A DNA stretch of 48,165 nucleotides, from positions 1 to 48,165 of the forward strand of contig JAKQBO010000020.1 of the NCBI GenBank assembly GCA_029559515.1, in the 5' to 3' direction. Made by a program: the position numbers and the translations under genes. Source of the stretch: a bacterium. Its GTDB lineage: Bacteria; Patescibacteriota; Minisyncoccia; Minisyncoccales; UBA1441. This document shows, in pieces, positions 4 through 43,286 of this stretch (positions are counted from its first letter, which is position 1; each line of letters starts with the position of its first letter). Under the pieces are notes generated by a model. The model had not been told where the DNA came from, searched no databases, and saw nothing but the letters and a program-made list of their open reading frames with translations.

Positions 4-780
4 TTATTCGGTCGCCAGTCTAATATCACCACATTGGCCGTTTAAATTTTCAACCACCCTCATAACATCATCAATTTTGGGTTCGTAGGCAGTAATAATA
101 TCGCCATTTTTAAGTTTGATAGTTACTAACTTACTATGGGTCTGAAATACGCTTTTTACTTCGCAATTATTAAGGGCAGCTAAAACTGTATTCCAGTTAC
201 TGTTGGTTTCATCTGTAAAGTTTCGACCATCAGGGGTAGTGCATTGTGGCGGGTTGGATTGCATAATTAAAAAACCGGCCTTAACACAATCATCAAAATT
301 TCTAATTGTAGCTAAAAGTTCATTACACCTTTCATGGCTCGCCATATCGCTTTTGGGCAGACATTCTTTTAATTCGTCGGCTAATTCAGCGTCTTCTTCA
401 ATTAAGTTTTCAGCAATACTCCACAAAGAATAATACCGGCTGTAATATCTATGATAAGCCACTGCGCTTGTTCTAGTTGGTGACTCAAAAAGATAAGCTG
501 ATCCCAGTTGTTCTGTAAAATCATAACCCTTTTCTCTCATTAAAGATTTGATTATCTCTGAGTTATTGCTTTTGGTGATGTATTTATTTTCTCCGACGTC
601 TAATTTAACAATATCTTTATCGCTAAAAGTTAACTGAGCAATCCCTTTAATTTGTGGCCCAGGATTGCCTTCCTGAAAAATTACTGGCGAGTAGAAAAAC
701 ATAAAAATACCCAGCAATAAAATAGTGACGGATACAAGTAATAAAATCTTTTTATTTTTTGATGAGTGTTCAAAAATCAT
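4..780 (-). CDS. Hypothetical membrane-anchored or exported protein (258 aa), function unknown
   Basis: Complete ORF. It has an N-terminal hydrophobic helix (KILLLVSVTILLLGIFMFFY) followed by a Cys-containing soluble part. No motif was recognised. It lies in a lower-GC segment than the rest of the window. Confidence 0.55.
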   Translation of the reverse strand: MIFEHSSKNKKILLLVSVTILLLGIFMFFYSPVIFQEGNPGPQIKGIAQLTFSDKDIVKLDVGENKYITKSNNSEIIKSLMREKGYDFTEQLGSAYLFESPTRTSAVAYHRYYSRYYSLWSIAENLIEEDAELADELKECLPKSDMASHERCNELLATIRNFDDCVKAGFLIMQSNPPQCTTPDGRNFTDETNSNWNTVLAALNNCEVKSVFQTHSKLVTIKLKNGDIITAYEPKIDDVMRVVENLNGQCGDIRLATE

Positions 781-1320: not shown

Positions 1321-1890
1321 TTAATCTTCGTCAACAAAATTACGCCACATCTGGCTGGGCCGAGGGCGCTCATCGCCAACGTACTTGCTGCTGGGCTTAT
1401 CAGAATAAGGCTGCTGGCACTCTGAAGAGAGCTCTTCAAAGATCATCTGGGCAATCGGCATTCGATAATAAAGCAAAATAGGAATGTTGGCCGTATTATG
1501 CAGTTCCAAAGTCATTTTGAGGCTGTTGCCCGGATCAAGAAAGCCGGCGGTAACATGAATCAATAAGCCCATCCGCCCAACCGAGCTCTTGCCCTCCAGC
1601 CGGCCAACATAGCGTGAAGAAACCCCCGTCTTTTCATAGACTAAGCCCAGGGCAAACTCGCCCGGATGAAGAATCAATGGATGTTGTTCGTCGATTATTG
1701 TTTCATTCATTGCATTATCCAGTGATTTTTTAGGATCAATGACATAATTCTGCTCTGTGTTGAAAGTTAAAAAATAACGGTCCAGGTGCAGATCGACCGA
1801 GGCCGGCTGGAGATCTTTCGGATCAAAAGGATCAACGACAATTTCACCCTGCTGAATAGCTTTTTTAATATCTTGATCTGATAAAATCAT
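1321..1890 (-). CDS. dcd: dCTP deaminase (189 aa)
   Basis: The sequence MILSDQDIKKAIQQGEIVVDPF...PASVDLHL...G is typical of Dcd/dUTPase-fold enzymes. The start is set at ATG 1890 because the longer ORF (to 2004) runs through the tRNA-Ser(GCU) gene. Confidence 0.88.
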   Translation of the reverse strand: MILSDQDIKKAIQQGEIVVDPFDPKDLQPASVDLHLDRYFLTFNTEQNYVIDPKKSLDNAMNETIIDEQHPLILHPGEFALGLVYEKTGVSSRYVGRLEGKSSVGRMGLLIHVTAGFLDPGNSLKMTLELHNTANIPILLYYRMPIAQMIFEELSSECQQPYSDKPSSKYVGDERPRPSQMWRNFVDED

Positions 1891-1920
1891 AGTCTTTGTT
1901 TTATTTTTCAAACATCGGAC

Positions 1921-1945
1921 AAATAAAACCGGCGAGATTAGCCGG
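1921..1945 (-). terminator. Hairpin plus U-tract after tRNA-Ser(GCU)
   Basis: The minus strand reads CCGGC-taatctc-GCCGG followed by TTTTATTT. Confidence 0.45.
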
Positions 1946-1952
1946 CTGAAGA

Positions 1953-2042
<90 letters not shown>

Positions 2043-4841: not shown

Positions 4842-6086
4842 TTAACCTTCGCGCTGACCCAAGCTGCCTTCCAGAGTTAAAATTTGCCCTTGCCGCCATA
4901 CTTTCAGAATTATCTGATCCCCCGGATCATACTCCTGGATTATCCGCCCCAGCATCTGATCCGCCGTTACTTTCTGGCCGTTGAATTCTAGAATCACGTC
5001 GCCTTCTTTCAAGCCCATTGCCTCAGCTGTCGATCCCGACATAACCGAGACGCCTGATTGAGGGTCTTGGATAATCAGAGCCCCGTAATCATAGTCCAGC
5101 TGGTGCTCTTCCTGAATGTCCTGATCAACCATAACGTAGCTGATGCCTAAGAAGGGATAGACTATTCGTCCGGTCTCCTGGAATGACTTAATCGCTCTCT
5201 TAGCCTGATTAATAGGGATGGCAAAGCCAACATTTTGAGCCTGCTCAGCCATAGCTACATTAACGCCGACGACTTGGCCGTTGAGGTCGAGCAGCGGACC
5301 GCCAGAATTTCCATGATTAATAGCCGCGTCGGTTTGAATAAGGTCGGTTAAAACATCGCTGTAGCCAAACCCATAAGCGCTAACCATTCGACTTAATCCA
5401 GAGATAATTCCGGTTGAAACCGTTCCTTCAAACTGACCAAGGGCATTGCCAATGGCTAAAACTGTCTGGCCGGGAACTAATTGATCCGAATCGCCCAACT
5501 CTAATACCGGAAAACCATCTCCCTCGACTTTCATTAGAGCCAGATCGTGCAGGGGATCCCGCGCTAAAACCTGAGCCGGATAAGTTTCATTGTCAATCGT
5601 GACCACTTGATAATCTGCATCTTCATCCAAAACAACATGTTTATTAGTTAAAATAAGTCCATCAGCCGAGATAAAGAATCCGGTTCCGTGACTAACCTCC
5701 TGACGGACACTAGGTTCCACCGGTTGATAAAACCAGCCCCAGCCGTAAAGGAAGGGATCCACGGCCACTTCTCGAGTAACGACTACGCTAACCACCCCCG
5801 GCAGAGCCTGGTTGGCTGACTCAATCACTCGCTCCTCATGAGTCGTCTGCGGAACATAATGAATCGTCTCTTGGTGAATAACTTCTGGTTGCCGCTCAAT
5901 GACCAGCGACGGAATTTTATCTTCTAAAACTTCGATGGGCAGCCAGATTTGAGCCGTTAGGCCGCCTAAAAAGCCAAAAATCCCAGCCAGAATTATAACC
6001 AGCAAATCCCGCCAACCTATTCTTCGGCCAGCCTTTTCCGGCCTCGCCGCCTCTTGAGAAATCTGATTGTTGATTGGTTCCTCCAT
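4842..6086 (-). CDS. htrA: HtrA/DegP-family serine protease with C-terminal PDZ domain (414 aa)
   Basis: It has an N-terminal TM anchor and trypsin-fold motifs (TNKHVV, GNSGGPLL). A PDZ-like C-terminus is present (GLKEGDVILEFNGQKV). Confidence 0.9.
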   Translation of the reverse strand: MEEPINNQISQEAARPEKAGRRIGWRDLLVIILAGIFGFLGGLTAQIWLPIEVLEDKIPSLVIERQPEVIHQETIHYVPQTTHEERVIESANQALPGVVSVVVTREVAVDPFLYGWGWFYQPVEPSVRQEVSHGTGFFISADGLILTNKHVVLDEDADYQVVTIDNETYPAQVLARDPLHDLALMKVEGDGFPVLELGDSDQLVPGQTVLAIGNALGQFEGTVSTGIISGLSRMVSAYGFGYSDVLTDLIQTDAAINHGNSGGPLLDLNGQVVGVNVAMAEQAQNVGFAIPINQAKRAIKSFQETGRIVYPFLGISYVMVDQDIQEEHQLDYDYGALIIQDPQSGVSVMSGSTAEAMGLKEGDVILEFNGQKVTADQMLGRIIQEYDPGDQIILKVWRQGQILTLEGSLGQREG

Positions 6087-6132: not shown

Positions 6133-8859
6133 TCAGCGACTGTAACGGATGTTGTCCAAGTAAAAGCTGAATTGAGAAGAGTGACGATAAGAATTGAATA
6201 TGATTTTATCGTAGCGGCCCTTGCTTCGCTGTTCGGCCGACAGGTTGGAAACGTCAAAGCTGTGCATTTCAAACGTATCCGCTTCTTGAACATCGGGCAC
6301 CAAATCTAAATCCAGAACCCGGACTATCTGAGCCGGTTTGGTCTTCAATAATAGGTAGAAATAGTTTTGATCAACCGTCATGCTTTGGCAAACATCCTCT
6401 CCCGCGGCCAAGGTTTTGGTAGTGGTTGTCGCAAAACTGTCTTTATCGAGACGAACCAGCTTGGCCGGCGAGGTCCCCAGGCAGATATAGACTGATTCGT
6501 CTAACTCTAATAAGCTGGCCGGACTGTCTTCATTAACAAACAGAGTCTTAACTAAAGTATTGGAAAAATCTCTTTTATCGATGCGAACAATTGTTCCGGG
6601 CCGACCGACCAAGCCTGCATAAATAAATTTTTCGTCCTGAGCCAAGTCAACCACCTTCGCCCCGCCCGTCTCCAGCTCTTTAGTCTCAACAGAATTCAAG
6701 TCTTCCTTGTTAATCCTTAAGATCCTAATGGGCTGAGTGTCTAAGCTGACATAAAGATAATTTTCATCCTGGGTCAGGCTGCCAATGCTATCAATGTTGC
6801 GGGGAAAATCAGTCGCCCCCACCTCTGAAAGATCGCTTTTGTCAATTTTTAGAACGCCCCCGGGCCGATGGGAATAGCCAACATATAAATAGTTTTGATC
6901 AGCTATAATTTTAGCAACTTGATAGTCCTGAAAAGAATTAGAGATGACTGAAAAATCACTCTTATCTATTTTTGCAACGTAGCCCGGGCGAGCTGAAAAG
7001 GTTCCGTAAAGATACTGTTCGTCCTGAGTTAAATCAGCCAAAGCATCAAACCCTTTCGGCAATGTTTTATAAAATACGCTCGAGAAGTCTTTTTTATCGG
7101 CCCGGGCAATAATGCTCGGCGAGGCAGAAAGTCCAATGTAAAGATAATCCCGATCATTGATAATTCGAACCGGATTATCAGCCGAGGCAATAAATTCTTT
7201 CAAAAGCCGGTACCGTTCGAGGTCTGGATCATCAAAGATGGCTTTGTTTAATCGGATAATCTTAGCGGGCTCAGTATCAAAAGCTAAAAACAGATGTTGG
7301 CCCTGACCAACCAGGTCGTAGGCCGGATGATCGCCCGGAGCCAAACTGACAGTGGTCATCAAAAGCGTTTCTTTATCAATCCGGGTCACCTGAGCCGGCG
7401 AAGTGTCAGAAACGAGGTAAATAAAGTTTTGATCCTGGCTAATGCCCCGCCCCGTAGCCGGAATAATTTTGGCCACCGCGGTAAAGTCCTGCTTAGAGAC
7501 ACGCACCATCCTCGCCGGACGGGTGCTCAAAAACAGATAAAGAAAGCTTTCATCCTGGGTCACCCCGTAAGCCGAATCCTCGCCCACGGTTAACGACCCC
7601 CTAGCCAGGCTTTGGTTCTGCTTATTGACTTTAACAATCTGAGTGGGCGAAGTATCGAGCACCGCATAAACATTTTCACTGTCGTTGATTAAAGAAATAA
7701 CTCTGTTGGCTGAAGCCTGCAGGGACAAAACGCTGGTGGTTAAATTACTCTTATCAAGCCGAATTATTTGGGCCGACCCAGTCCCGAGCCCGATGTAAAG
7801 ATAATCTTCATCTTGGGTTAATGAGCTGACGATATTCTGACCGCTGTCCAAAGCAATTGTTCGCGTAGTCACAAAATCGGACTTTGATAATCGAACGATT
7901 TTCCCGGGCGTCGTCTTTAAGCCGACATAGATGTAATTGTCGTCATTGACTAATGAGGCAATCTTATCCTCGCCGACAGCCAGAGTTTTGGTCTCGGCTC
8001 GAGAAAAATCACCCCGGTCGATTCGAATAATTTTTGCCGGACTAGTGTCAAGCCCGATATAGACATACTCGTCGTCCTCATCGATTGCCCGGGCCCGGTC
8101 TTCACCGGAAGAAAGAAAACTTGACTGGCTGAAGAATCCGAGCACTTTTTCGCCCGGCTCGCTTTGATTGATATCAAGCCGAATTTCATTAGCCGTTAAA
8201 AGATCAATCACTCCCAGTTCGCCGAACACGCTAGCTTGATGGCCGTCTCCTTTGATTGAAATATAATTGGCGGCCTGGCCGGCTGTTCGGATATTTTGGG
8301 AAATACTGACTTGAATCTGGTCGGAATCAGAGCTAATGAAAGGATGATCACAATTTTGAATCACCACCTCTTGCGGCCGAGTGCCAGTCCAGGCGATATC
8401 GTGGCCGTCTTCAGAATGGATGCTGATAAAATTTCCTTCGCCCGTTTCGCGAGACGCAAAAACCCGGTACTCTGAACCGTTGTCCTTAGTCTTATAAAAA
8501 TAAGTATAGGTCTCCATAGCCCCTCCCAAGAAGTAGGTCTGAGGATAGAGGGGATCTCTGGGAATGCCACCCGGCAAATATTCTCTTAATTCATCTTCTA
8601 AACCGAGGTCTTCCTCCAGTCGAGCGCCACTATCTCTCTTGGGAAAACTCCCCCGATCAACTCGGTAGGCTTCGAGCGCCTGCCTAATTTGAGCCAAATC
8701 AGCCTCTCGCTGAGCGTCGCGAGCCAGAGCTTGATTGTAGTTAACAACTAAATAGATAGAAACCCCGGCCAAGATCACAACCAAAACTCCGGCCACTACT
8801 TCAACTAGGGTAATTCTAATTTTTTTCTTGGTAGGTGAAGACATAAGCCTTACCGTCAT
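6133..8859 (-). CDS. Giant pilin-like protein (908 aa): GspG/type IV pilin-like N-terminal helix plus 14 tandem ~44-aa beta-propeller-type repeats
   Basis: The N-terminus KKKIRITLVEVVAGVLVVILAG...RDAQREADLAQIRQALEAYRVDRGSFP...YLPGGIPRDP matches the prepilin/pseudopilin architecture. Residues ~255-852 carry 14 repeats of the pattern D-x-x-Y/F-hYhGh-x-T/S-x-P-x-x-IhRhDK-x-DF. Confidence 0.85.
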   Translation of the reverse strand: MTVRLMSSPTKKKIRITLVEVVAGVLVVILAGVSIYLVVNYNQALARDAQREADLAQIRQALEAYRVDRGSFPKRDSGARLEEDLGLEDELREYLPGGIPRDPLYPQTYFLGGAMETYTYFYKTKDNGSEYRVFASRETGEGNFISIHSEDGHDIAWTGTRPQEVVIQNCDHPFISSDSDQIQVSISQNIRTAGQAANYISIKGDGHQASVFGELGVIDLLTANEIRLDINQSEPGEKVLGFFSQSSFLSSGEDRARAIDEDDEYVYIGLDTSPAKIIRIDRGDFSRAETKTLAVGEDKIASLVNDDNYIYVGLKTTPGKIVRLSKSDFVTTRTIALDSGQNIVSSLTQDEDYLYIGLGTGSAQIIRLDKSNLTTSVLSLQASANRVISLINDSENVYAVLDTSPTQIVKVNKQNQSLARGSLTVGEDSAYGVTQDESFLYLFLSTRPARMVRVSKQDFTAVAKIIPATGRGISQDQNFIYLVSDTSPAQVTRIDKETLLMTTVSLAPGDHPAYDLVGQGQHLFLAFDTEPAKIIRLNKAIFDDPDLERYRLLKEFIASADNPVRIINDRDYLYIGLSASPSIIARADKKDFSSVFYKTLPKGFDALADLTQDEQYLYGTFSARPGYVAKIDKSDFSVISNSFQDYQVAKIIADQNYLYVGYSHRPGGVLKIDKSDLSEVGATDFPRNIDSIGSLTQDENYLYVSLDTQPIRILRINKEDLNSVETKELETGGAKVVDLAQDEKFIYAGLVGRPGTIVRIDKRDFSNTLVKTLFVNEDSPASLLELDESVYICLGTSPAKLVRLDKDSFATTTTKTLAAGEDVCQSMTVDQNYFYLLLKTKPAQIVRVLDLDLVPDVQEADTFEMHSFDVSNLSAEQRSKGRYDKIIFNSYRHSSQFSFYLDNIRYSR

Positions 8860-8869
8860 CTAGTTCATT

Positions 8870-10309
8870 TTAACACAATCTTTCAGCATGAAAAGCTGAA
8901 GTTGCTTGAAAATTTTTCAGGCTGGCTAAAAACCAGGCAAAGTAATAGATTACTAAAAACCAAACCGGGACGGTTAAAACAATGGCGGACCAGCCCCAGC
9001 CGGAAAAAAAGACAATCATTTGAGTAATAACTGCTAAAACCAGCCCCGTTAACCAGGCGACCGGGGTAAATCCAGCTGAAAGCAGGAAGGCCAAGCCTAA
9101 GGTGAAAATCAAGGGCAAGAAGATCACCACCGCGATATTAGCCAGCGGCCCGACCAAGGACAATTGCTGAAAGTAATAGGCCGAAAGAGGAATCGTCGCT
9201 AGCTGCGCCGCCAAAGTAACGGCCAGAGATTCCCGGAGTAGGGTAACCGGGACCCAGCTCAACCATTTCTTTAGCTGATCAAACCAGCAAATTAAACCGG
9301 CGGCGGCCAAAAAAGAAAGCTGAAAACCGATGTCCCATCGTAGCAGCAGCGGATTAGCTAACAAAATAAAGAAAGCGGCCCAGATAATAGCCCGACCCGG
9401 TTGATAAAGCCGGCCCAAAATAGGTCCCAGGAAGCCCAAGCCCACCATTAACCCGGCTCGCCAGATCGAGGGACGACCACCGGTTAATAATACAAAGATT
9501 AAGATTGCCACCAAAATTAGTTTAGCCGAGCCCGGCTGGCTAAATTTAAGCTTCTTCAAGAGGCTCCTTAAAATTCCAGCCAAAACAACCAGATGCATTC
9601 CGGAAACCACTGCAATGTGGTTCAGGCCGGTCCGGGACAGGTGATTGGAAAAAGATGAATTGGAAATCCTCTGACCGAGCAACATCGCTTTCAAGAGAGA
9701 AGCTGAAGGCTCAGCCAGCCGCTGGTCGATCAAGGACGATGCCCCATCTTGAACCCGAGACGCCAAATAAGGGATAAAATAATTATTATTGCGACCGATC
9801 AATTCAACCTTTGGATGAAAAAAGGTGGCATAAACGCCCTCCTTGAGGCGATAATTTTGAAACTCCTCCGAAATAGTCGGCCGGCCAGAGACAATCAAGC
9901 GCTGTCCTGGAGAAAATTCAGCCCAGGCGTAGTCTCCAAAAACAGTGAAGTGTCCCCTTAGTTCCGGAGAACGGGCTAAAACCGGCCAGTCTAATTTAAC
10001 CTCCAGGTGGGCTCCCGTTGGACGAAGTTCTGGACGGGTAACAACTGTGCCCACCAAAACCACCTCTGCCTCGGCCTGCCATCTTTCCTGAATCGCCAGG
10101 CGTTTCTCCACTTGCAGGTTTAGATAGCCCGCCCCCAAGGCCAGCCCAATGAAAAAGACCGCCATGCTTGAGCGGCGGTCGATGATCAGAATAATTAACC
10201 CAAGAGAGATCAACAAGAAGATAATTAGCCAGTCAATCAACCAGAATGAGGCCAGCGCCAACCCGATCAAGAAACAGACAGTTAAATGGAGAGGATCGAA
10301 TTTTACCAT
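8870..10309 (-). CDS. comEC: ComEC/Rec2-family DNA internalisation channel protein, short form (479 aa)
   Basis: It is a polytopic membrane protein with an N-terminal OB-like segment and the competence-domain signature GLNHIAVVSGMHL. No C-terminal metallo-beta-lactamase domain is present. Confidence 0.8.
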   Translation of the reverse strand: MVKFDPLHLTVCFLIGLALASFWLIDWLIIFLLISLGLIILIIDRRSSMAVFFIGLALGAGYLNLQVEKRLAIQERWQAEAEVVLVGTVVTRPELRPTGAHLEVKLDWPVLARSPELRGHFTVFGDYAWAEFSPGQRLIVSGRPTISEEFQNYRLKEGVYATFFHPKVELIGRNNNYFIPYLASRVQDGASSLIDQRLAEPSASLLKAMLLGQRISNSSFSNHLSRTGLNHIAVVSGMHLVVLAGILRSLLKKLKFSQPGSAKLILVAILIFVLLTGGRPSIWRAGLMVGLGFLGPILGRLYQPGRAIIWAAFFILLANPLLLRWDIGFQLSFLAAAGLICWFDQLKKWLSWVPVTLLRESLAVTLAAQLATIPLSAYYFQQLSLVGPLANIAVVIFLPLIFTLGLAFLLSAGFTPVAWLTGLVLAVITQMIVFFSGWGWSAIVLTVPVWFLVIYYFAWFLASLKNFQATSAFHAERLC

Positions 10310-11004
10310 CAGCGAACCAAACAGTGCTTAACGAAGTTTGCCTCAAGCTCTTGAGCCCACGATCTCATCTCTCCTTGAGAATAGCTTTGAGCCGAAAGAA
10401 ATTTCGGATCAACTGTCTTCCCGGCGGAAACGAATGGCTGGAGAACATACTTTTCAGCCCCCCGAATCATCTGGCCAATTTCCATAATGTCTTCTGGGAC
10501 CAGCTGATTTCTGACAACCGTTGTTCGAAACTCATAGGCCCGTCCTGAATTCATAATGAAATCAATGCTTTGCTGAATTAATCTAAAATCAATCTCAGTC
10601 TGAGCGATCGCCGAATATTTTCCTTGGGGCGCCTTAATATCCATTGCCCAGTAATCAACTAAGCTCTCCTTTAACAGCCCAGCCAATACCTCCGGGTGGC
10701 TGCCGTTGGTATCTATCTTGACCAAAAAGCCCAGCTTTTTAATTTTCTTTAAAAACTGAGCTAGATCAGGCTGGAGAGTTGGCTCGCCGCCGGTAATCAC
10801 CACGCCGTCGAGCCGATTCACTCTCTTTTTAAGCCAGGCTAAAACATTTTCTTCCGGCTGAGGCTCTTGAAATTTCTTTGGGATCACTAGTTCCGGATTA
10901 TGGCAATAAGGGCAACGAAAATTGCACCCCTGGGTAAAGATAACTGCGCTTAACCGGCCAGGATAATCAACCAAAGAAAACCTTTGCCAGCCCCCAATTT
11001 TCAT
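10309..11004 (-). CDS. nrdG: Anaerobic ribonucleoside-triphosphate reductase activating protein (radical SAM)
   Basis: It carries the CNFRCPYCHN cluster motif. It lies immediately downstream of nrdD, with a 1-nt overlap (TAATG). Confidence 0.9.
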   Translation of the reverse strand: MKIGGWQRFSLVDYPGRLSAVIFTQGCNFRCPYCHNPELVIPKKFQEPQPEENVLAWLKKRVNRLDGVVITGGEPTLQPDLAQFLKKIKKLGFLVKIDTNGSHPEVLAGLLKESLVDYWAMDIKAPQGKYSAIAQTEIDFRLIQQSIDFIMNSGRAYEFRTTVVRNQLVPEDIMEIGQMIRGAEKYVLQPFVSAGKTVDPKFLSAQSYSQGEMRSWAQELEANFVKHCLVR

Positions 11005-13112
11005 TAATTGGCTTTAATTTTAGCCCGATGCTTAAATTCTTCTACCTTGCCGGCATTCCAATTAAAGGTCGGCCTCAAATAGCCAACGATCCGAGCATAA
11101 ACTTCGCAATCCGCCCCGCAGCTTGGGCACTTCGGCTGCTCACCATTAAGATATCCGTGCTCCGGACAAATTGAAAAGGTGGGAGAAATCGTAAAATAAG
11201 GCAGACGATAGTTTTGGCAGATTTTCTGGATTAGCCCGGGAATCGATGAGGGATCAGAAACCTTCTCACCTAAAAAGAAGTGAATTACCGTCCCGCCGGT
11301 ATACTTGGTCTGGATCTGGTCCTGAAGTTCCAAGATTTCAAACAGGTCGTCGGTGTAATCCACTGGCAGCTGAGAGGAGTTGGTGTAGAAAGGCGCCGCG
11401 CCCCGGCGATAATCTGCCTCATTGGCACATTTAATTTCTGGATATTTTCCCTTGTCTTTGAGAGCCAGCCGGTAGGAGGTGCCTTCGGCCGGAGTCGCTT
11501 CCAGATTATAGTTCACGCCGGTCTCCTTCTGAAATTCAAGCAGCTTGTCGCGAATAAAATCGAGCACTTTAAGGGCAAATTCCTGACCCTGAGGGTCGGC
11601 AATACTACAACCGAGAAAATTCTCTTCGGCCTCATTCAATCCGATCAGGCCAATCGTTGAAAAGTGGTTATGCCAATAGTGGCCAAAGCGCTCCTTAATA
11701 CTGCGAAGATAAAATTTAGAATAAGGATAAAGGCCCTGTTCGGTAAATCGCTCTAAAACTTTTCTCTTTATTTCGAGACTGTTTTTGGCCAGCACCATCA
11801 GCTTTTCCAAACGATCAAAGAAGTCTTTTTCGCCTTTAGCCAGATATCCCAGCCGGGGCATATTAATCGTCACCACCCCGATGCTGCCGGTCAGCGGATT
11901 GGCTCCAAAGAGACCGCCGCCTCGTTTGGCTAAATCTTCCAGGCTCAGTCTGAGCCGGCAACACATACTGCGGACGTCTTCCGGCTTCATATCTGAATTA
12001 ACAAAGTTGGCAAAATAGGGAAGGCCGTACTTAGCCGTCGCCTCCCAAAGGTAGGGAGTAAACGGACGGTCCCATTTGAAGTCCTTAGTAATGTTGTAAG
12101 TCGGAATAGGAAAGGTAAAGACCCGGCCCCGATAATCGCCCTCTGTCATTACCTCCAAAAAGGCCCGGTTAACCATATCCATCTCTTCCTGGAAATCACC
12201 GTAGGTTTCAGACTGGGGCTGGCCACCGATTATCACCGGCTGCGTCTGGTAGTCTTTTGGGACGACCAGATCAAAACTGAGATTAGTAAAGGGTGTTTGG
12301 AAGCCCACCCGGGTCGGAACATTCATGTTGAAAATGAACTCCTGCATGGCCTGCTTAACTTCAGCATAGGTTAGCCCGTCATAACGGATATAGGGAGCCA
12401 GCAGGGTATCAAAGCTAGAGAAGGCCTGGGCCCCGGCTGATTCGCCCTGCAGAGTATAAAGAAAATTACAGATTTGCCCCAAGGCGGGGCGAAAGTGCTT
12501 CGGTGGGCCACTCTCAATCTTGCCAGGGGCGCCTCGAAAACCAACCGTTAGCAGATCCTGCAGATCCCAGCCAACACAGTAAACAGAAAGAACACTCAGG
12601 TCGTGAATGTGAAAATCGCCGGTCTGGTGGGCTTCTTTAATCTCAGGCGGATAAATTTTATTCAGCCAATAAACGCTATTAACCCAGCCAGAAACATAAT
12701 TATTTAAACCCTGCAGCGAGTAGGTCATGTTGCTGTTTTCCTTGATCTGCCAATCGTGGTTGTGCAAATACTGGTCAACAATATCAACGTTGCTCTGATC
12801 GACTACCTCCCGGAGACGGGCGTGCTGATCGCGATAGATAATGTAGGCTCGGGCCGTTTGGCGATAGGGTGATTCCATTAAAACTGCCTCAACCAGGTCT
12901 TGAACTTGTTCAACCGTTGGTAGATCCCGAGAAAGATTGCGGTTGATTCTTTCCATTACCTGCTGCGTCAACCGTTCGGCCTCGGCCAATTCAAACTCGC
13001 CCGTAGCCTGCCCCGCCTTTTGAACGGCAACGGTAATCTTGCGCGAGTCAAAGGGGACTACTTCCCCTGATCGCTTTCTAATCTTTTTAGGCTGGGACGG
13101 ACTTTTAGGCAT
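11004..13112 (-). CDS. nrdD: Anaerobic ribonucleoside-triphosphate reductase (class III RNR, 702 aa)
   Basis: It has an ATP-cone-like N-terminus. The C-terminus carries a Zn site and glycyl-radical motif (CPSCGADCEVYARIVGYLRP). Confidence 0.95.
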   Translation of the reverse strand: MPKSPSQPKKIRKRSGEVVPFDSRKITVAVQKAGQATGEFELAEAERLTQQVMERINRNLSRDLPTVEQVQDLVEAVLMESPYRQTARAYIIYRDQHARLREVVDQSNVDIVDQYLHNHDWQIKENSNMTYSLQGLNNYVSGWVNSVYWLNKIYPPEIKEAHQTGDFHIHDLSVLSVYCVGWDLQDLLTVGFRGAPGKIESGPPKHFRPALGQICNFLYTLQGESAGAQAFSSFDTLLAPYIRYDGLTYAEVKQAMQEFIFNMNVPTRVGFQTPFTNLSFDLVVPKDYQTQPVIIGGQPQSETYGDFQEEMDMVNRAFLEVMTEGDYRGRVFTFPIPTYNITKDFKWDRPFTPYLWEATAKYGLPYFANFVNSDMKPEDVRSMCCRLRLSLEDLAKRGGGLFGANPLTGSIGVVTINMPRLGYLAKGEKDFFDRLEKLMVLAKNSLEIKRKVLERFTEQGLYPYSKFYLRSIKERFGHYWHNHFSTIGLIGLNEAEENFLGCSIADPQGQEFALKVLDFIRDKLLEFQKETGVNYNLEATPAEGTSYRLALKDKGKYPEIKCANEADYRRGAAPFYTNSSQLPVDYTDDLFEILELQDQIQTKYTGGTVIHFFLGEKVSDPSSIPGLIQKICQNYRLPYFTISPTFSICPEHGYLNGEQPKCPSCGADCEVYARIVGYLRPTFNWNAGKVEEFKHRAKIKAN

Positions 13113-34997: not shown

Positions 34998-36635
34998 TTA
35001 ATTAAATGGACTTTCTTCCGGCATCTGGCTGACCTCATTAACCCCCAAGGCTGCAAAGGAAAGAACCTGGTTAGTCCAGAGATCGCGGCCGCGGCCCTCG
35101 GCTGGCCCAATCAGCGGACTTTGGAGCGTCTCTATGCTTTGTGGCTGGACCACCAGTTGAAAGGCTAAGATAGCCTGTTGGTCTGGCTCCAGATGGCCGA
35201 CATCCCAAACCAGGCGGTCGCCCTCGCCTTGCAAACTCAAGCGTCCAGCCTCTTCATCTGGAAAAAGACGGTCGGCAAACATCGTCTCCGAAGGCAAATC
35301 AACCGCGACCCAAACATCATCAACCTCGTTATAAGTATTCGTCAGCCGCCAAAAGACGGTGTAGAGAGTCGTTTCGCCTAATTGAAGCGGAATTGGTCCC
35401 TCGTCTTCAAAAAACTCATCCCCAGCATAAACCTCTTGAACCAGCTCGAGCTGCGAATTGATTTTAGTAGCAAAGATATTCCGCATACTGCCGATCTCGA
35501 CCTCGATTTCAACTTGCGGACTTAGACTCCGAATCGGCCACTCCTCTTTCAAATCAATCCAAAAATCAACTTGCCCCTCCTCGTCCCGATCGAGAAACCT
35601 TAGCTCCGGAATAACCCGCCAGTCCCAAAGAATCGAACTGTGCCCGGGTTGATAAGTGGCCCGAGTGGCCCGAAGAGTATTTAAATCAAAGTAGTCGCCC
35701 TTGAGATAAATCGTTATGAACTGGTTTTCCAGGGGACGTTCGGTAACGTTTCGGAAATATATTTGATAATGTAATGAGTCGCCGGGGTTGGCAACATAAT
35801 CAAAGGAGCCGTTAATCTGCAAAGCCAGGTGAAGGGGTGCATCAGAAATTTCAATCTTCTGGCTGATTCGCTTCAGCGGCGCAAAGCCCTGTTCGGTCCA
35901 AATTCCCAGCTGAGCGCTTAAGACCACCTCTGGAACGTCTGGACTGGCCTGCCCGGTCAGGCGGATTCGTCCGCCGTCTTGAGATACTAAAAAGGGAATC
36001 TGCCATTCGCCCGGTTCGTTAGACCCGACTGGAGAGCTTTCTTTTAATTCAAAGCCTCGGGTGGCCGAAAATCTAATGCCCACATTTTCCAGAGTTTCAT
36101 CTAGAGCGGAAAAATAATTTAAGGAAAATTGAAAGTCTTCTCCCGGAGCGGCCGTTTGAGGTAAGCTGAACTCTAGCGTTAATGGAACTTCCGAGATTGT
36201 CGTAGTCGCCGAAGTATCGGCGCTATAGTAAACGCGCAACCCTTCGACCTGATAATCCAGCCTGGCCTTAGCAGTTAAAACTTCTTTTTCTTGCCCAAAA
36301 ACTTTGGCCCGGAAAGTAAACTGCTGTTCCTGGCCTGGATAAATATCTTGCTCTAGCTTTTGGCGGACCATGCTTTCGTCGGGATCAATCGGCCGGACAT
36401 AGCGAGGGAATTCAAACATTAGCTCGGCGTTCGATAAGGCAAAATTGCCCTGGTTCTTAATTCTCAAGGTATAGTCTACCGACTCCCCGACCACAATCGA
36501 TTCCGGAGCAATTAGCTCCAAAAAAACATCACCGCGAGAAGCAACGTTCTTCTGGTAAAGAAACCAGATTACTACGGCTAAAGCCACCGCTGCTATCAGA
36601 AGAAAAACTAAAATAATCTTCGTAATCTTGGACAT
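34998..36635 (-). CDS. Membrane-anchored extracellular protein with ~4 CARDB/DUF11-like beta-sandwich modules (545 aa)
   Basis: An N-terminal TM helix is followed by recurring segments of the type G-E/D-x-h-x-Y-x-h-x-h-x-N (VGESVDYTLRIKNQGN, PGDSLHYQIYFRNVTE, LGETTLYTVFWRLTNT). The function is unknown. Confidence 0.75.
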   Translation of the reverse strand: MSKITKIILVFLLIAAVALAVVIWFLYQKNVASRGDVFLELIAPESIVVGESVDYTLRIKNQGNFALSNAELMFEFPRYVRPIDPDESMVRQKLEQDIYPGQEQQFTFRAKVFGQEKEVLTAKARLDYQVEGLRVYYSADTSATTTISEVPLTLEFSLPQTAAPGEDFQFSLNYFSALDETLENVGIRFSATRGFELKESSPVGSNEPGEWQIPFLVSQDGGRIRLTGQASPDVPEVVLSAQLGIWTEQGFAPLKRISQKIEISDAPLHLALQINGSFDYVANPGDSLHYQIYFRNVTERPLENQFITIYLKGDYFDLNTLRATRATYQPGHSSILWDWRVIPELRFLDRDEEGQVDFWIDLKEEWPIRSLSPQVEIEVEIGSMRNIFATKINSQLELVQEVYAGDEFFEDEGPIPLQLGETTLYTVFWRLTNTYNEVDDVWVAVDLPSETMFADRLFPDEEAGRLSLQGEGDRLVWDVGHLEPDQQAILAFQLVVQPQSIETLQSPLIGPAEGRGRDLWTNQVLSFAALGVNEVSQMPEESPFN

Positions 36636-36705: not shown

Positions 36706-37452
36706 CTAAGATTTAATTAGGCTAGAAGACTGGTCTTGGCGGACCGAATCGAGAAAAAATCGCGAAACTTTCTCCAGATTTTTTTGATCTTCTGGACTAG
36801 TCTTAATCCGGGCTAAGCAAGCTTTATCTTTTTCCGCAATTAAACGGAGAATTTTGATAGTATTAGGCGAGATCTTTTCTAAAAAATCCTCATCCTTCCG
36901 GCAGCCCGGACAGACTATTCCGTCCTGGGCAATTAAATAGCAGACTTCAGATTTAAGGTGATTTGAACAGCGGGCGCATTTTTGAAGGTCGATCTGATAG
37001 CCCCAGCTGTTCATTAGCGTCCAAAGAAAATAATAATAAAGGCGTTGATAGTGCTTCTTCATCAGATTCAGGGCATGCAGCGCCCCCAGATAGAGAAACC
37101 AAGTGTTGTCATCTGGCAGACGCCAAGGCGTTAGCGCTTCAACGTCTTGGGTCATTTTCCGAGCCACTATAAACCTCGCCCAGTCTCGGCTTAGGTTAGC
37201 AAACGGTGTTTTCGGTCGAGCCGCGGTAATAATCGGCTGGCGATAACCAAAAACCAATTCAATCTCGCTCCAGCTAAAGAGCCCTAAGCCACCCCTTAAT
37301 TTTGAAAGAATTTTTCTCTCCCCACGAGCGACAGCTTTAAGCTTGCCGAAGCGATCAGTTAATAAAATAATCTGGCTGTCGGCTTCGCTGATTGCTTGGC
37401 GGCCTAGTACCACGGCTTCCGTCTTCTCTTTAAGAAACATGATCGGGTTCAA
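36706..37452 (-). CDS. recO: DNA repair protein RecO (248 aa)
   Basis: It has an OB-fold N-terminus (EAVVLGRQAISEADSQIILLTDRFGKLKAVARG) and a Cys4 zinc finger (CARC...CPGC). Confidence 0.85.
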   Translation of the reverse strand: MNPIMFLKEKTEAVVLGRQAISEADSQIILLTDRFGKLKAVARGERKILSKLRGGLGLFSWSEIELVFGYRQPIITAARPKTPFANLSRDWARFIVARKMTQDVEALTPWRLPDDNTWFLYLGALHALNLMKKHYQRLYYYFLWTLMNSWGYQIDLQKCARCSNHLKSEVCYLIAQDGIVCPGCRKDEDFLEKISPNTIKILRLIAEKDKACLARIKTSPEDQKNLEKVSRFFLDSVRQDQSSSLIKS

Positions 37453-40400
37453 TGGCTAAAAAGAGCTTCTGGCCGTCTAAAACAACTTCTTGGCTTTCGG
37501 CCGGTGGCCGGCCCTCGGGCGATTTTAAATCAATAGCTTGATTATTTTTCTCAATCTCAGAACGATATTTTTCGAGAAGCTGAACCGGCTCTTCGGCTCC
37601 CCAATAATAGACAGTAGCCGGATCGGACGGCTTCAGGCCGGCTTTTTTTCTCAGATTCTTGATCGTCCGGACAACCTCTCTAATTTGGCCTTCTTCTTCT
37701 AAGTCTTTGCTCAACCGGGTGTCGACAGCGAGCTTTAGGCTGCCTTCTTCAGCCTGAACCCAGCCGGACTCTTCTTTAAGGCTTTCTTCAAAAGATACCC
37801 GGCGCACGTTTATCTCTTGGCTAATTAACTCATTTAAATCTTGATTTTTTAAGGCTGGACCCTGAACTCTCAGTTCGGCCAAGGGCTGCCTCACTTTTAG
37901 GCCGGCTTTAGCGCGGGCCTGCAAAGACAATCGGACAATTTCTCTGACCCGAGTCATCTCTGCTTCTATTTCTGGATTAATTAAATCTTCTTGAGGTTCA
38001 AAGTAGTCCTGTAGGTGAACCGAAATTGATTGGTTCTGGGACCTTAAAGAGCGATAAACTTTTTCACTAATAAAGGGGGTTAACGGAGCCATCAAATTGC
38101 TAATACTCAAAAGAAAGTATCGCAACATCTTGGCTGCAGTTTCTGTTTCTGGGCCCGGGTTTTGCAGGCGGGGTCGAGAGCGCCGAATATACCAATTAGA
38201 AAAATCATCGATTAGGTCTACGAAAAGACGGGCGACTCGATCGACCCGATAAGCCTCCATTTCTTGAATCAACTGTCGGCCCACCGCATGAAGACGAGAA
38301 AGCATCCATTGGTCAAGCAGGTTCGGGCTGAATGGAATTTGATCGTCCAATTCAATTTCCGGAGCATAAGTCAAATAGAACGAGGCGCAGTTATCGAAGG
38401 TGCTAATTATCTTCTGCATCACCTCGTTGACCTTGTCTTCGGCCACCACGTAGTTGCCGCCCAGCGAAGACTGATTCAGAAAATAAAAACGTAGCGCGTC
38501 AGCTCCATAACGATCAAGGATGACTTGAGGCGGTTGATAGTTCTTGACGTGCTTAGATAGTTTTTCGCCGCTCTCGGAGAGAATTAGACCGTGGGCAATA
38601 ACGTTTTTAAAGGCTGGTTGGTTTTGACCCAGGCCGTCATCTTTCAAGGTTAAGGCAGTCGCCAGAACGTGCAAAGTGTAAAACCAGCCCCGAGTTTGCT
38701 CTAAAGCTTCAGTAATAAAGTCAGCTGGAAAAAATTCTTTTGTCTGTTCCTGATTTTCAAACGGATAATGAAACTGAGCGTAGGGCATCGCGCCTGATTC
38801 GTACCAACAATCAAAAACCTCTTCGACTCTCTTCATCTTTTCTCCGGAAGGCGAATAAAATTCAATCTGGTCGATATAGGGACGATGAAAGTCAATCCGA
38901 CCCTCTTCATTGAAGGGCATTTGAGCAAATTTCAACTCTCGGACTTCAGCAAAATCAAGGCCTAATTCAGAGCGGCGGGCGGTATGCTCTTTTTCAGTTA
39001 AACCGAGACAGGCCGACTCCAAGTATCGAAGCGGACCCCGATGGCCGATAATTAAGACATTGGCTCCCTGATACTTTTGATCCTGGTCCTTTAAAAACTG
39101 ATAGATTCTCTGCCTCACAGCTAATCCGGTCTCACCACCTTCCGGGGTTCGGGTTAAGAACTCATCCGAAGAGTCAAAGAATTGGTAATATTCTTTGATC
39201 GATTTTCCGTTAGCGACACCAAATTGATGCTCACCCAGTTCCGAATAAAACCGAGGCTCAATCCCTAAAATTTCCCCAACTATTTCCGCCGTCTGCCGGG
39301 CTCGAGTTAAATTAGAAGAAAGAATAACATCGATTTTGTTCTCCTTTTTCAGCTTCTTGGCCGTAGCTAGAACCTGCTTCCGGCCCAATTCTGTTAATGG
39401 ATAGCCGTTATCGCGATCAATTAAAACTTTCTGAACATTGCTTTCAGCTTCACCGTGCCGCATCAGCCAATAGCGATTATCACTGAACTTCTGCTGCCTT
39501 AAGTCTTCACGCGAACCAATCACAACCGTCTCGCCTTTTTCTGATTGCCAGATCGGGATAGGCGCTCCCCAGTAGCGGTTTCGCGATACGGCCCAATCAC
39601 GGGCCCCCTCTAGCCATCGACCGAAACGACCGTTCTTAATATGTGCGGGAACCCAATTGATTTGCTGGTTATTCTTAACCAATTGATCGCGAAATTTTTC
39701 AACGGCGATATACCAGCTAGTAACCGGATAATAGACCAAACGTTGATCACAACGCCAACAAAAGGGATAACTGTGCTCAATTTCCAAAGTCCGGTAGAGA
39801 AACTGGCGTTTTTTAAGATCCTCTAAAATAGCCTGGTCGGCCACCCAAACCGGCTGGCCCGCCCCGGGCAAATTATAGCCGGTGGCCATACGGCCGCTGC
39901 GATCAACTGTAATCTTGAGAGGCAGATTCTGTTTCTTAGCCACCTCCATGTCCTCTAGCCCAAAGGCGGCTAGGTGAACTAAGCCGGTGCCTTCTTCTGT
40001 CGAAACAAAGTCAGTTTCCACCACTCGATAATCCCGGCCATTGCTAGGCGGAACATCATAGAGCGGTTGATAAGCCTGCCCGATCAGCTGTCGGCCTTTA
40101 AAAGTTTCAATCTGCTCAAAGTCTTCTTCAATCTCCGATAGCCGCGACTCGGCCAGAATTAAAAATTCCGAGCCGGTCTTAATTTTTACATAGTCGATTT
40201 CCGGATTAATCGCCACCGCAAAATTAGCCGGCAAAGTCCAGGGAGTAGTCGTCCAAATCAAAAGAGAGGTTTTCTCTTGATCAATCAGCGGAATTTTGAC
40301 GAAGACTGAAAGATCTTTAATGTCGCGATAGGCTCCGGGCTGATTCAGCTCAAAATTAGACAAAGGGGTCTCGCAGCGCGGACAATAGGGAGCCGTGCGG

Positions 40401-40921
40401 TAGTCCTGATAGACCAACCCCTGCTGATAAAGACGCTTAAAGATCCACCAAATGCTCTCGGTGTATTCCGGGTCAATCGTCGCGTAATAGTTGTCATAAT
40501 CAGCCCAGCGGCCTAATCTCTTCAGAATTTGCTCAAATTCATCTAAGCAACGAAAAACTAAATTACGGCAGGTCTGGTTAAATTTATCAATACCTAACTG
40601 CTCAATGTCCGCCTTGCTCTTCTGATTCAGCTCTTGTTCGGCCAAATTCTCCAGGGGTAGACCGTGGCAGTCCCAGCCCACCCGACGAGGCACATACCGG
40701 CCTCTCATTGTCTGATAACGAAGAACAACGTCTTTAATGGTTGACGGGAGAAGGTTGCCGTAATGAGGCTGGCCGGTGGCGAAGGGCGGACCATCATAAA
40801 AAGAGAATAGTGGCCGGCCTTGGCGCTGAGCAACACTCTGCTCAAAAACCCGGTTTTGCTCCCAAAACCTAAGAATCTCCTCCTCTGATTTAACAATATT
40901 ATTTTTTTCTTCTGGCATCAC
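37430..40921 (-). CDS. ileS: Isoleucyl-tRNA synthetase (type 2) with an inserted histidine-phosphatase-superfamily domain (1163 aa)
   Basis: It has PPFATGQPHYGN (HIGH), a CP1 editing region (TTTPWTLPAN), WAVSRNRYWGAPIPIW and KLSKH (KMSKS). Residues ~481-672 form an RHG...H phosphatase module. Confidence 0.95.
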   Translation of the reverse strand: MMPEEKNNIVKSEEEILRFWEQNRVFEQSVAQRQGRPLFSFYDGPPFATGQPHYGNLLPSTIKDVVLRYQTMRGRYVPRRVGWDCHGLPLENLAEQELNQKSKADIEQLGIDKFNQTCRNLVFRCLDEFEQILKRLGRWADYDNYYATIDPEYTESIWWIFKRLYQQGLVYQDYRTAPYCPRCETPLSNFELNQPGAYRDIKDLSVFVKIPLIDQEKTSLLIWTTTPWTLPANFAVAINPEIDYVKIKTGSEFLILAESRLSEIEEDFEQIETFKGRQLIGQAYQPLYDVPPSNGRDYRVVETDFVSTEEGTGLVHLAAFGLEDMEVAKKQNLPLKITVDRSGRMATGYNLPGAGQPVWVADQAILEDLKKRQFLYRTLEIEHSYPFCWRCDQRLVYYPVTSWYIAVEKFRDQLVKNNQQINWVPAHIKNGRFGRWLEGARDWAVSRNRYWGAPIPIWQSEKGETVVIGSREDLRQQKFSDNRYWLMRHGEAESNVQKVLIDRDNGYPLTELGRKQVLATAKKLKKENKIDVILSSNLTRARQTAEIVGEILGIEPRFYSELGEHQFGVANGKSIKEYYQFFDSSDEFLTRTPEGGETGLAVRQRIYQFLKDQDQKYQGANVLIIGHRGPLRYLESACLGLTEKEHTARRSELGLDFAEVRELKFAQMPFNEEGRIDFHRPYIDQIEFYSPSGEKMKRVEEVFDCWYESGAMPYAQFHYPFENQEQTKEFFPADFITEALEQTRGWFYTLHVLATALTLKDDGLGQNQPAFKNVIAHGLILSESGEKLSKHVKNYQPPQVILDRYGADALRFYFLNQSSLGGNYVVAEDKVNEVMQKIISTFDNCASFYLTYAPEIELDDQIPFSPNLLDQWMLSRLHAVGRQLIQEMEAYRVDRVARLFVDLIDDFSNWYIRRSRPRLQNPGPETETAAKMLRYFLLSISNLMAPLTPFISEKVYRSLRSQNQSISVHLQDYFEPQEDLINPEIEAEMTRVREIVRLSLQARAKAGLKVRQPLAELRVQGPALKNQDLNELISQEINVRRVSFEESLKEESGWVQAEEGSLKLAVDTRLSKDLEEEGQIREVVRTIKNLRKKAGLKPSDPATVYYWGAEEPVQLLEKYRSEIEKNNQAIDLKSPEGRPPAESQEVVLDGQKLFLAIEPDHVS

Positions 40922-42985: not shown

Positions 42986-43278
42986 GGGGACGAACGGCTT
43001 CGATAGAATCTCGAGGCGCGCGGTGCGGGTTAAGGTGCCGGATCCTTATTAAACTTTCGGCAAACTACAAGTGTCAACACACTTCGGGGTTTAACCCCCG
43101 CCTACGCTTACGCCTGAAAGTTTCAGGATAAGCTTTCATAGTTTTTTTGCCTCCCTTTGCGGAGGAATCTGTTTCTGAAGCGCCCTAAACGCTTCTTGAA
43201 GACCCTCTTGAGGGCTAAGCCCGTAGATGCTGCTCGTCATTGATTTTCTAGACGTGGGTTCGATTCCCACCGTCTCCA
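42986..43278 (+). ncRNA. ssrA: tmRNA (SsrA), short form ~293 nt
   Basis: The 5-prime GGGGACG pairs with the 3-prime CGTCTCC and includes the G3.U70 Ala identity pair. The T-arm is GTGGG-TTCGATT-CCCAC with discriminator A. CCA is not encoded. It lies 3 nt after the smpB stop. Confidence 0.85.
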
Positions 43279-43286
43279 CTTTTACA

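Follow-up and report, generated by a model that had tools for sequence, protein, structure and literature searches.

The stretch of DNA analysed here, referred to as the window, comprises the 48,165 nucleotides of positions 1 to 48,165 of contig JAKQBO010000020.1 (assembly GCA_029559515.1, lineage UBA1441 of the Patescibacteriota), and is a dense run of housekeeping genes that includes nrdDG, ftsAZ, many aminoacyl-tRNA synthetases, clpB and smpB with tmRNA, among others. A single open reading frame (ORF) of 908 aa, at 6133..8859 (-) and hereafter called the target, lies in this run between comEC and htrA. This placement, with all three genes on the same strand, had been described in an earlier note made from the sequence without database searches, and was confirmed by domain matches of both neighbours. 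The target, from an uncultured Saccharibacteria/Patescibacteria bacterium, is a modular type IV pilin-family, extracytoplasmic protein, in which a leader, an alpha1-N helix and a pilin head are followed by a beta-rich segment of ~90 aa, 14 blades and a 47-aa tail (Table 1).

The peptide strings quoted in that note were all found in place within the target ORF. The methionine equivalent to M6 is the start in four of the five database orthologues and in all three orthologues from GTDB genomes, and the ATG at 8844 has AAGG immediately 5' of it, so that the product is probably 903 aa long, starting at M6. The protein is of ~100 kDa, with an isoelectric point (pI) of 4.9 and a net charge of -31. 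A promoter and terminator scan gave a signal indistinguishable from background.

Table 1. Features of the target, its neighbours and the pilus locus of the sister species. Positions are those of the window unless preceded by L013, a contig of the sister species.
Feature	Position	Strand	Description
Whole ORF	6133..8859	-	908 aa; probable start ATG 8844 (M6), giving 903 aa, ~100 kDa
Basic leader MSSPTKKKIR	8815..8844	-	10 aa from probable start, net +4; last residue Arg = -1
Hydrophobic alpha1-N segment ITLVEVVAGVLVVILAGVSIYLVVN	8740..8814	-	Invariant Glu+5; sole hydrophobic segment of the protein
Complete pilin module, aa 16-158	8386..8814	-	52-residue alpha1 helix and head with five-stranded sheet
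N-terminal flank, aa 159-250	8110..8385	-	Tentative first half of CBM8-like beta-sandwich
Repeats 1-7, aa 251-540	7240..8109	-	DUF6923-type four-stranded blades; inferred first seven-bladed propeller
Inter-propeller linker with short helix, aa 541-558	7186..7239	-	Least conserved part of the protein
Repeats 8-14, aa 559-861	6277..7185	-	Inferred second seven-bladed propeller
C-terminal segment, aa 862-908, ending FSFYLDNIRYSR	6136..6276	-	Most conserved region; tentative second sandwich half
comEC, upstream neighbour, 479 aa	8870..10309	-	DUF4131 and Competence domains; PF03772 at 2e-42; ends 10-25 nt before target start
HtrA-type serine protease, downstream neighbour	4842..6086	-	Trypsin_2 and PDZ; starts 46 nt past target stop
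Type IV pilus locus, sister species	L013 7294-17229	same strand as target orthologue	Compact, complete; preceded by TspO and bacterial eRF1-like (baeRF) gene
PilD prepilin peptidase, sister species	L013 15439-16227		PF06750 and PF01478

An exhaustive HMMER search, made with a profile built on aa 1-250 of five orthologues, matched 2785 proteins at E <= 1e-3, the top matches (E 1e-13 to 1e-18) spanning profile positions ~8-155. Among the 68 homologues that were scanned with Pfam, PF07963 (N_methyl) was found in 51 and PF08334 (T2SSG) in 35, and many of them are themselves modular, with LamG, beta-helix, RCC1 or PQQ-propeller modules. When aligned with MAFFT, aa 1-158 of the target matched stand-alone pilins of 144-156 aa from Candidate Phyla Radiation (CPR) bacteria from end to end, with the motifs ARD-x-x-R, AL-x-x-Y...YP, (I/L)-E-E-D, YLP-x-(I/L)P-x-DPLYP and Y-x-Y-x-YK...G-x-EY(K/R) in common. 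The AlphaFold2 model of aa 1-165, made with a 47-sequence alignment, reached a predicted local distance difference test score (pLDDT) of 92.9 and a predicted template modelling score of 0.81, and it combines a 52-residue helix (18-69) with a five-stranded sheet whose strands lie at 108-148, the lollipop topology of pilins. The profile homology, the end-to-end alignment and the lollipop model all bear out the pilin or pseudopilin N-terminus that was originally suggested, and support the view that this part of the target is a whole pilin module, helix and head, homologous to thousands of CPR pilins.

The direct similarity of this module to GspG-type models is weak: the curated models gave scores for the target that fall under their cut-offs (19.5 bits against 21 for PF08334, T2SSG; 23.5 bits against 88.85 for TIGR01710, GspG), and the GspG structure 5wda in the PDB was matched at E 0.06 with the single sequence and 0.0045 with a profile. 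With a pilin module at aa 16-158 and then a predicted DUF6923 double propeller with its flanks, the target has the make-up by which modular pilins are defined, that is, a pilin module with a further domain that is not particular to pilus biology. A separate observation concerns P0011, a 755-aa match of the aa 1-250 profile, which has six tandem pilin head domains (RDQIR...YP...IPTDP...) without a canonical pilin N-terminus and is an odd derivative of the pilin-head family.

The repeat region was delimited with a hidden Markov model (HMM) seeded with 11 evident copies, which found exactly 14 copies over aa 251-861, the number counted in the earlier note; the three unseeded copies were recovered at i-E 8e-11, 1e-5 and 2e-11. 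The period is 41-50 aa, mostly 43-44, with a mean pairwise identity of 29% and the consensus G-x-D...SL-x-QD-x-x-YLY-x-GL-x-T-x-PA-x-IVRIDK-x-DF. Whilst these repeats had been likened to LVIVD/YVTN-type blades, neither LVIVD (PF08309) nor YVTN (TIGR02276) matched the target at E <= 1 in Pfam or NCBIfam, and the repeats are instead of the DUF6923 family (PF21959), which was matched in Pfam over three stretches at 50.1 bits, against a gathering threshold of 27 (E 4e-13). There was also a sub-threshold match to the DDB1/RSE1 propeller, and a literature search for DUF6923 found no papers.

In the full-length AlphaFold2 model, made with five sequences (mean pLDDT 66), aa 255-850 are confidently predicted (pLDDT ~80-90) with four strands per repeat, and a short helix and low-confidence stretch at aa 539-553 come directly after repeat 7, i.e., between repeats 7 and 8. 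The top Foldseek matches in the PDB, at E 1e-18 to 1e-15 and template modelling scores of 0.3-0.44 over 600-720 aligned columns, have two seven-bladed propellers in tandem (the tandem WD protein Utp21, CFAP52, LRP6 and the sensor domain of BT4663). The natural reading is that the repeats would form two seven-bladed propellers, both of pI 4.65-5.0, with the ring count read from strands and matches rather than from coordinates. The initial reckoning of fourteen blades as two times seven thus gains support from the predicted strands, the linker after blade 7 and the Foldseek matches. A likeness to phage tails that had been considered for P0009, a distant repeat protein, was dropped, as searches of PHROGs with P0009 and with the target gave no matches.

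The segments on either side of the repeats (aa 159-250 and 862-908) are strongly conserved, yet have a pLDDT below 50 in the full-length model. When the two segments from seven orthologues were fused into a joined profile, one sequence in the PDB was matched, 7t7y (E 0.0014, 21.6 bits), which is the CBM8 (carbohydrate-binding module) beta-sandwich of Dictyostelium CelA (PMC9079177), and the alignment runs collinearly across the flank junction (query 31-155 against chain 28-150). The N-terminal flank alone found the same chain at E 0.13, and the C-terminal flank profile gave insignificant PDB matches only, with CBM8 not among them. Searches with the joined flanks found nothing in Pfam and, when an uninterrupted homologue was sought in the protein database, only a fragmentary orthologue (P0010). 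Regarding the ligand residues of DdCBM8, W572 and W574 fall outside the aligned region, Y600 aligns with His207 of the target (Tyr in L007 and L008) and Q686 with an Asn. The idea that the flanks look like halves of a CBM-like fold is therefore weakly supported, in that the joined profile matches CBM8 over both halves, and is weakened by the C-terminal half having no match of its own and by AlphaFold2 leaving the flanks unmodelled; tentatively, the flanks may be the halves of one CBM8-like beta-sandwich split by the propellers.

The target family is narrow, with five full-length orthologue clusters of 52-99% identity among 5.8 billion clustered proteins, to which a representative library added only P0010, a fragment of 263 aa. 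Among GTDB genomes, "Patescibacteria group bacterium UBA1441" has an orthologue of 74% identity, and two metagenome-assembled genomes of uncultured Candidatus Saccharibacteria have orthologues of 54-55%. DNA nearly identical to the window is present in metagenomes from activated sludge, landfill, anaerobic digesters and groundwater; a search for RNA-seq runs found none. Between the deepest orthologues, identity is 59-62% in the pilin module, 74-79% in the tail and 48-52% in the propellers, with ~54% for the whole protein. The pilin module and the tail are thus more conserved than the propellers, in keeping with a stable carrier whose binding module evolves more quickly.

In the sister species (L006 and L013), which has the 74% identical orthologue, a complete type IV pilus locus starts 6.9 kb downstream of the orthologue and on the same strand. 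Its order is pilM, a PilN-like ORF with no Pfam match, pilO, pilB, pilT, pilC, three pilins, pilD and two pilin-like ORFs; the three tandem major-pilin genes are canonical (MNNKGFTLIELL...) and near-identical, and the two pilin-like ORFs resemble minor pilins. In the target organism the gene order of the sister species resumes ~1 kb past the window, with a DUF167 gene.

This pilus locus, the constraint under which the pilin module and Glu+5 are kept, the quicker divergence of the propellers, the modular-pilin concept and the example of PilX1 and PilX2 of the saccharibacterium TM7x together suggest that the target is a pilus-associated adhesin, at the tip or in the priming complex, whose ligand would lie on a host or in the matrix and would probably be a glycan; we give this reading a probability of about 0.55. 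Under this proposal, the N-terminus would insert the protein N-in/C-out, leaving ~870 residues outside the cell, and the pilin module would dock it onto a type IV pilus machinery whose genes lie nearby. The target would be a low-abundance subunit, located at the tip or acting in priming, because it is too bulky for the body of the filament. The propellers, possibly with the CBM-like sandwich, would then bind a surface ligand on a bacterial host or in the matrix, probably a cell-wall glycan, and the outcome would be pilus-mediated attachment serving an epibiotic lifestyle. A pilus-tip adhesin had also been put forward in the earlier note; it agrees with what is known of TM7x PilX2 (PMC11623550) and with the nearby pilus locus of the sister species, and is plausible.

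Several observations weigh against this reading. Foldseek found no significant match in the PDB for the pilin-module model, the top one being a Thermus type IV pilin at E 0.58, and the fold assignment consequently rests on homology and topology. The processing site is as previously described, KKKIR/ITLVE (the slash marking the site), residues -1 and +5 being Arg and Glu, and in the alignment register residue -1 is Arg in the target and P0001-P0004 and Asn in P0005, P0010, L007 and L008; every orthologue read (7 sequences) has Arg or Asn at this position. Residue +1 is hydrophobic, as in pilins, where it is usually Phe: it is Ile in the target and Leu or Phe in the orthologues. Strom and Lory, in 1991, reportedly found that prepilin peptidases require a small residue at -1, and among the 149 best matches of the aa 1-250 profile -1 is Gly, Ser or Ala in 130 and +1 is Phe in 128. 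PF07963 was not matched by the target at E <= 1 in Pfam. Neither a pilus gene nor another pilin-like N-terminus is present in the window, the target being outside any pilin operon, and the pilus locus is known from the sister species rather than from the target organism's own contigs, which end ~1 kb past the window.

Judged from the alignments, the processing site of the target is non-canonical, consistently across its orthologues, and Arg or Asn at -1 may mean atypical processing, or else that the intact subunit is retained in the priming complex or at the base of the pilus. A like uncertainty over processing has been proposed for TM7x PilX1 and PilX2 (PMC11623550). The main rival explanation, which we regard as rather unlikely, takes this further and has a pilin-derived protein that works independently of a pilus. 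In this view the loss of Gly, Ala or Ser at -1 would prevent cleavage, the former class III signal peptide would serve as a permanent signal anchor and the pilin head as a stalk, and the double propeller would be displayed at the cell surface itself, as an adhesin or receptor for close contact. The contrast between Arg or Asn at -1 and the small residues of most relatives speaks for it, as do the lack of a PF07963 match and the location of the gene outside any pilin cluster. The target has only one hydrophobic segment, at ~aa 12-45 after the +4 leader, and from this segment and the basic leader the topology is expected to be N-in/C-out whether the leader is removed or kept, which also suits a membrane-anchored adhesin. 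Glu+5, on the other hand, is invariant in all orthologues and in the 47-sequence family alignment, and such constraint on a charged residue within a membrane helix, and on the whole pilin head, is unexpected for a mere anchor. The signal peptide of TM7x PilX2 is non-canonical, and still the pilX2 mutant has the phenotype of a strain without its major pilin (PMC11623550).

Degenerate sites are also found in three small CPR pilin homologues, P0025, P0046 and P0051, with Arg or Lys at -1 (KKLSR/PRLLE, KKLK/NRLGE and DTR/FSLFE). The anchored adhesin can draw on these too. As they have no Gly, Ala or Ser at -1, they indicate that degenerate processing sites recur in the pilin family. If the target family has kept a fully functional pilin module despite Arg or Asn at -1, it could be supposed that CPR prepilin peptidases accept substrates other than those of the textbook, or that an uncleaved, membrane-retained pilin regularly primes or anchors the pilus whilst holding a 75-kDa nested double-propeller/CBM-like module, a generalisation that we consider doubtful. 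Were it true, the module so held would be nested in a way that is rare, the double propeller of 14 blades sitting within a loop of a CBM-like sandwich.

The N-terminal segment also invites the suggestion that its pilin-like helix is no more than a Sec signal peptide, cut by signal peptidase I at A44-L45-A46/R47 to release a secreted or wall-associated protein. An A-x-A or A-x-S does follow the hydrophobic segment in the target, P0002, P0003, P0004 and L008, and a signal peptidase I is encoded in the window. The A-x-A, however, is part of an ARD motif found in alpha1-C throughout the family, canonical pilins included, and P0005 and L007 have Asn and Thr, respectively, as the -1 residue of the supposed site. 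The hydrophobic segment of 24-25 residues with a Glu is atypical for Sec signal peptides, and the site falls inside a continuous modelled helix with pLDDT above 95, making such cleavage very improbable.

The order topA, pth, lepB, hisS, ftsA, ftsZ, nrdD, nrdG, comEC, target, htrA, clpB, dcd is kept in all related loci, with the exception of L007, which is without htrA, and the adjacency of comEC and the target is kept in all eight. Since the gene order of the entire topA-to-dcd block is constant in a single clade, the adjacency cannot count as separate evidence that the two genes are functionally linked. The linkage with comEC to which the earlier note pointed is thus conserved as an adjacency, but it carries little weight, as all relatives found have the block in the same order. 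A role as DNA receptor, in which the target would be a competence pseudopilus subunit that captures DNA for the adjacent ComEC in natural transformation, would be in keeping with its position, only 10-25 nt downstream of comEC and in the same orientation, and with the natural competence of Saccharibacteria (PMC10633639). This position, however, lies within a housekeeping block of a single clade, the protein and both of its propellers are acidic, and TM7x T4P-2 pilin mutants, including pilX2, have wild-type competence (PMC11623550). Given this acidity and the normal competence of those mutants, a DNA-receptor role is highly unlikely, and the DNA-binding alternative raised at the outset is disfavoured for a protein of pI 4.9. 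A pilus-associated adhesin is the reading preferred over each of these alternatives.

A number of observations were made on other genes of the window. ComEC (8870..10309 (-), 479 aa) has DUF4131 and the Competence channel domain without the C-terminal metallo-beta-lactamase-type domain, and its gene is among the fastest evolving of the block (47-58% identity against 75-90% for its neighbours). A 258-aa ORF at 4..780 (-), with no family match, lies between dcd and the DUF167 gene in the target organism (L009-L012) and is absent from the same place in the sister species (L006, L013), so it looks like a strain-specific insertion. The tRNA-Ser(GCT) gene at 1956..2042 (-) overlaps the 5' end of the mechanically listed dcd ORF (1321..2004 (-)); the true dcd start is further in, since gene calls on related contigs give 196 aa. 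Isoleucyl-tRNA synthetase (37430..40921 (-), 1163 aa) contains an internal histidine-phosphatase domain (PF00300, E 3.7e-33) at aa 485-647. NrdD is 702 aa in the window (11004..13112) but 1173 aa in the 52%-identity relative (L001/L002 4365-7886), where a LAGLIDADG-like ORF is found near the long nrdD (L001 16804-17745), which suggests an intein or homing-endonuclease insertion in the L001/L002 lineage. The 545-aa ORF at 34998..36635 (-), with sub-threshold DUF11/DUF7619-type matches only, may be another surface protein, and a tmRNA gene with the tag VNTLRGLTPAYAYA lies at 42986..43281 (+), directly after smpB.

The closest known systems are PilX1 and PilX2 of TM7x (Nanosynbacter lyticus), large minor pilins with a jelly-roll and a seven-bladed propeller, respectively (Grossman et al., 2024, PMC11623550). 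Both are without a predicted PilD signal peptide and have been proposed to be tip adhesins, and deletion of pilX2 halves host binding (PMC11623550). Compared by description, the target resembles them in coming from the same phylum, in having a pilin module followed by a large binding module and in having no predicted PilD-type signal. The binding module of PilX1 is, however, a lectin-like jelly-roll and that of PilX2 one RCC1-type propeller, whereas a single chain of the target combines fourteen DUF6923 blades, read as two propellers, with a possible CBM-like sandwich; pilX1 and pilX2 are also located within pilin loci, whereas the target gene lies between comEC and htrA.

Modular pilins are widespread, with PilB (vWA) and PilC (lectin) of S. 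sanguinis as examples, and an 860-aa pilin of Candidatus Falkowbacteria has 12 propeller-type repeats of IPR013211 (Raynaud et al., 2021, PMC8179133). The target shares with these proteins a small N-terminal pilin module bearing a bulky functional module, and the Falkowbacteria example is of similar size. The canonical class III signal peptide (IPR012902) was, however, the criterion by which they were gathered, and the target fails this signature; its repeat family (DUF6923) differs, and its extra module appears to be nested rather than simply appended. The Pam donor-strand-exchange pili of CPR bacteria (10.64898/2026.03.03.709456) were considered as well and are unrelated, with Ig-like folds and no pilin helix.

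Among solved structures, the best direct sequence matches of the target are to GspG of the type II secretion system (PF08334, TIGR01710; PDB 5wda, 3fu1), with which it shares alpha1 with Glu5, the pattern A-x-x-D/R-x-R...L...AL..Y and a head with (I/L)P-DP. It differs from GspG in scores that stay under the curated cut-offs, in lacking a Gly-Phe processing site and in being six times longer, and in its CPR setting pilus genes are seen rather than those of a type II secretion system. The PilY1/PilC tip adhesins have in common with the target, for which it is proposed, a beta-propeller presented by a type IV pilus for adhesion. PilY1, though, is not a pilin and docks on minor pilins, its propeller being of the IPR008707 family, whereas the target has a pilin module of its own and gave no Pfam match to the PilY1/PilC family (IPR008707/PF05567). 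The archaeal FlaF and FlaG are archaellin-like proteins that keep their N-terminal helix uncleaved, and offer a possible analogy to a membrane-anchored adhesin, but from another domain of life and another machine, and with no propeller.

Attachment to host bacteria is the way of life of Saccharibacteria and other CPR bacteria, and to our knowledge their recognition of hosts is largely unknown beyond a few oral strains. The target is a clade-specific candidate for a host-binding adhesin in an environmental lineage of activated sludge, landfills and digesters. It would add a second, independent lineage of large pilin-family adhesins without a canonical peptidase site, and as the target is a defined substrate and a close relative supplies the cognate PilD gene, the question of whether such pilins are cleaved, and by what, is testable. 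Modular pilins, CPR pilins with many propeller-type repeats and saccharibacterial propeller and jelly-roll pilins with non-canonical signal peptides have already been published; the target is therefore a clade-restricted new case of a modular pilin and not a new type of system, and is set apart from the published ones by its DUF6923 double propeller, its possible nested sandwich and its consistent Arg or Asn at -1.

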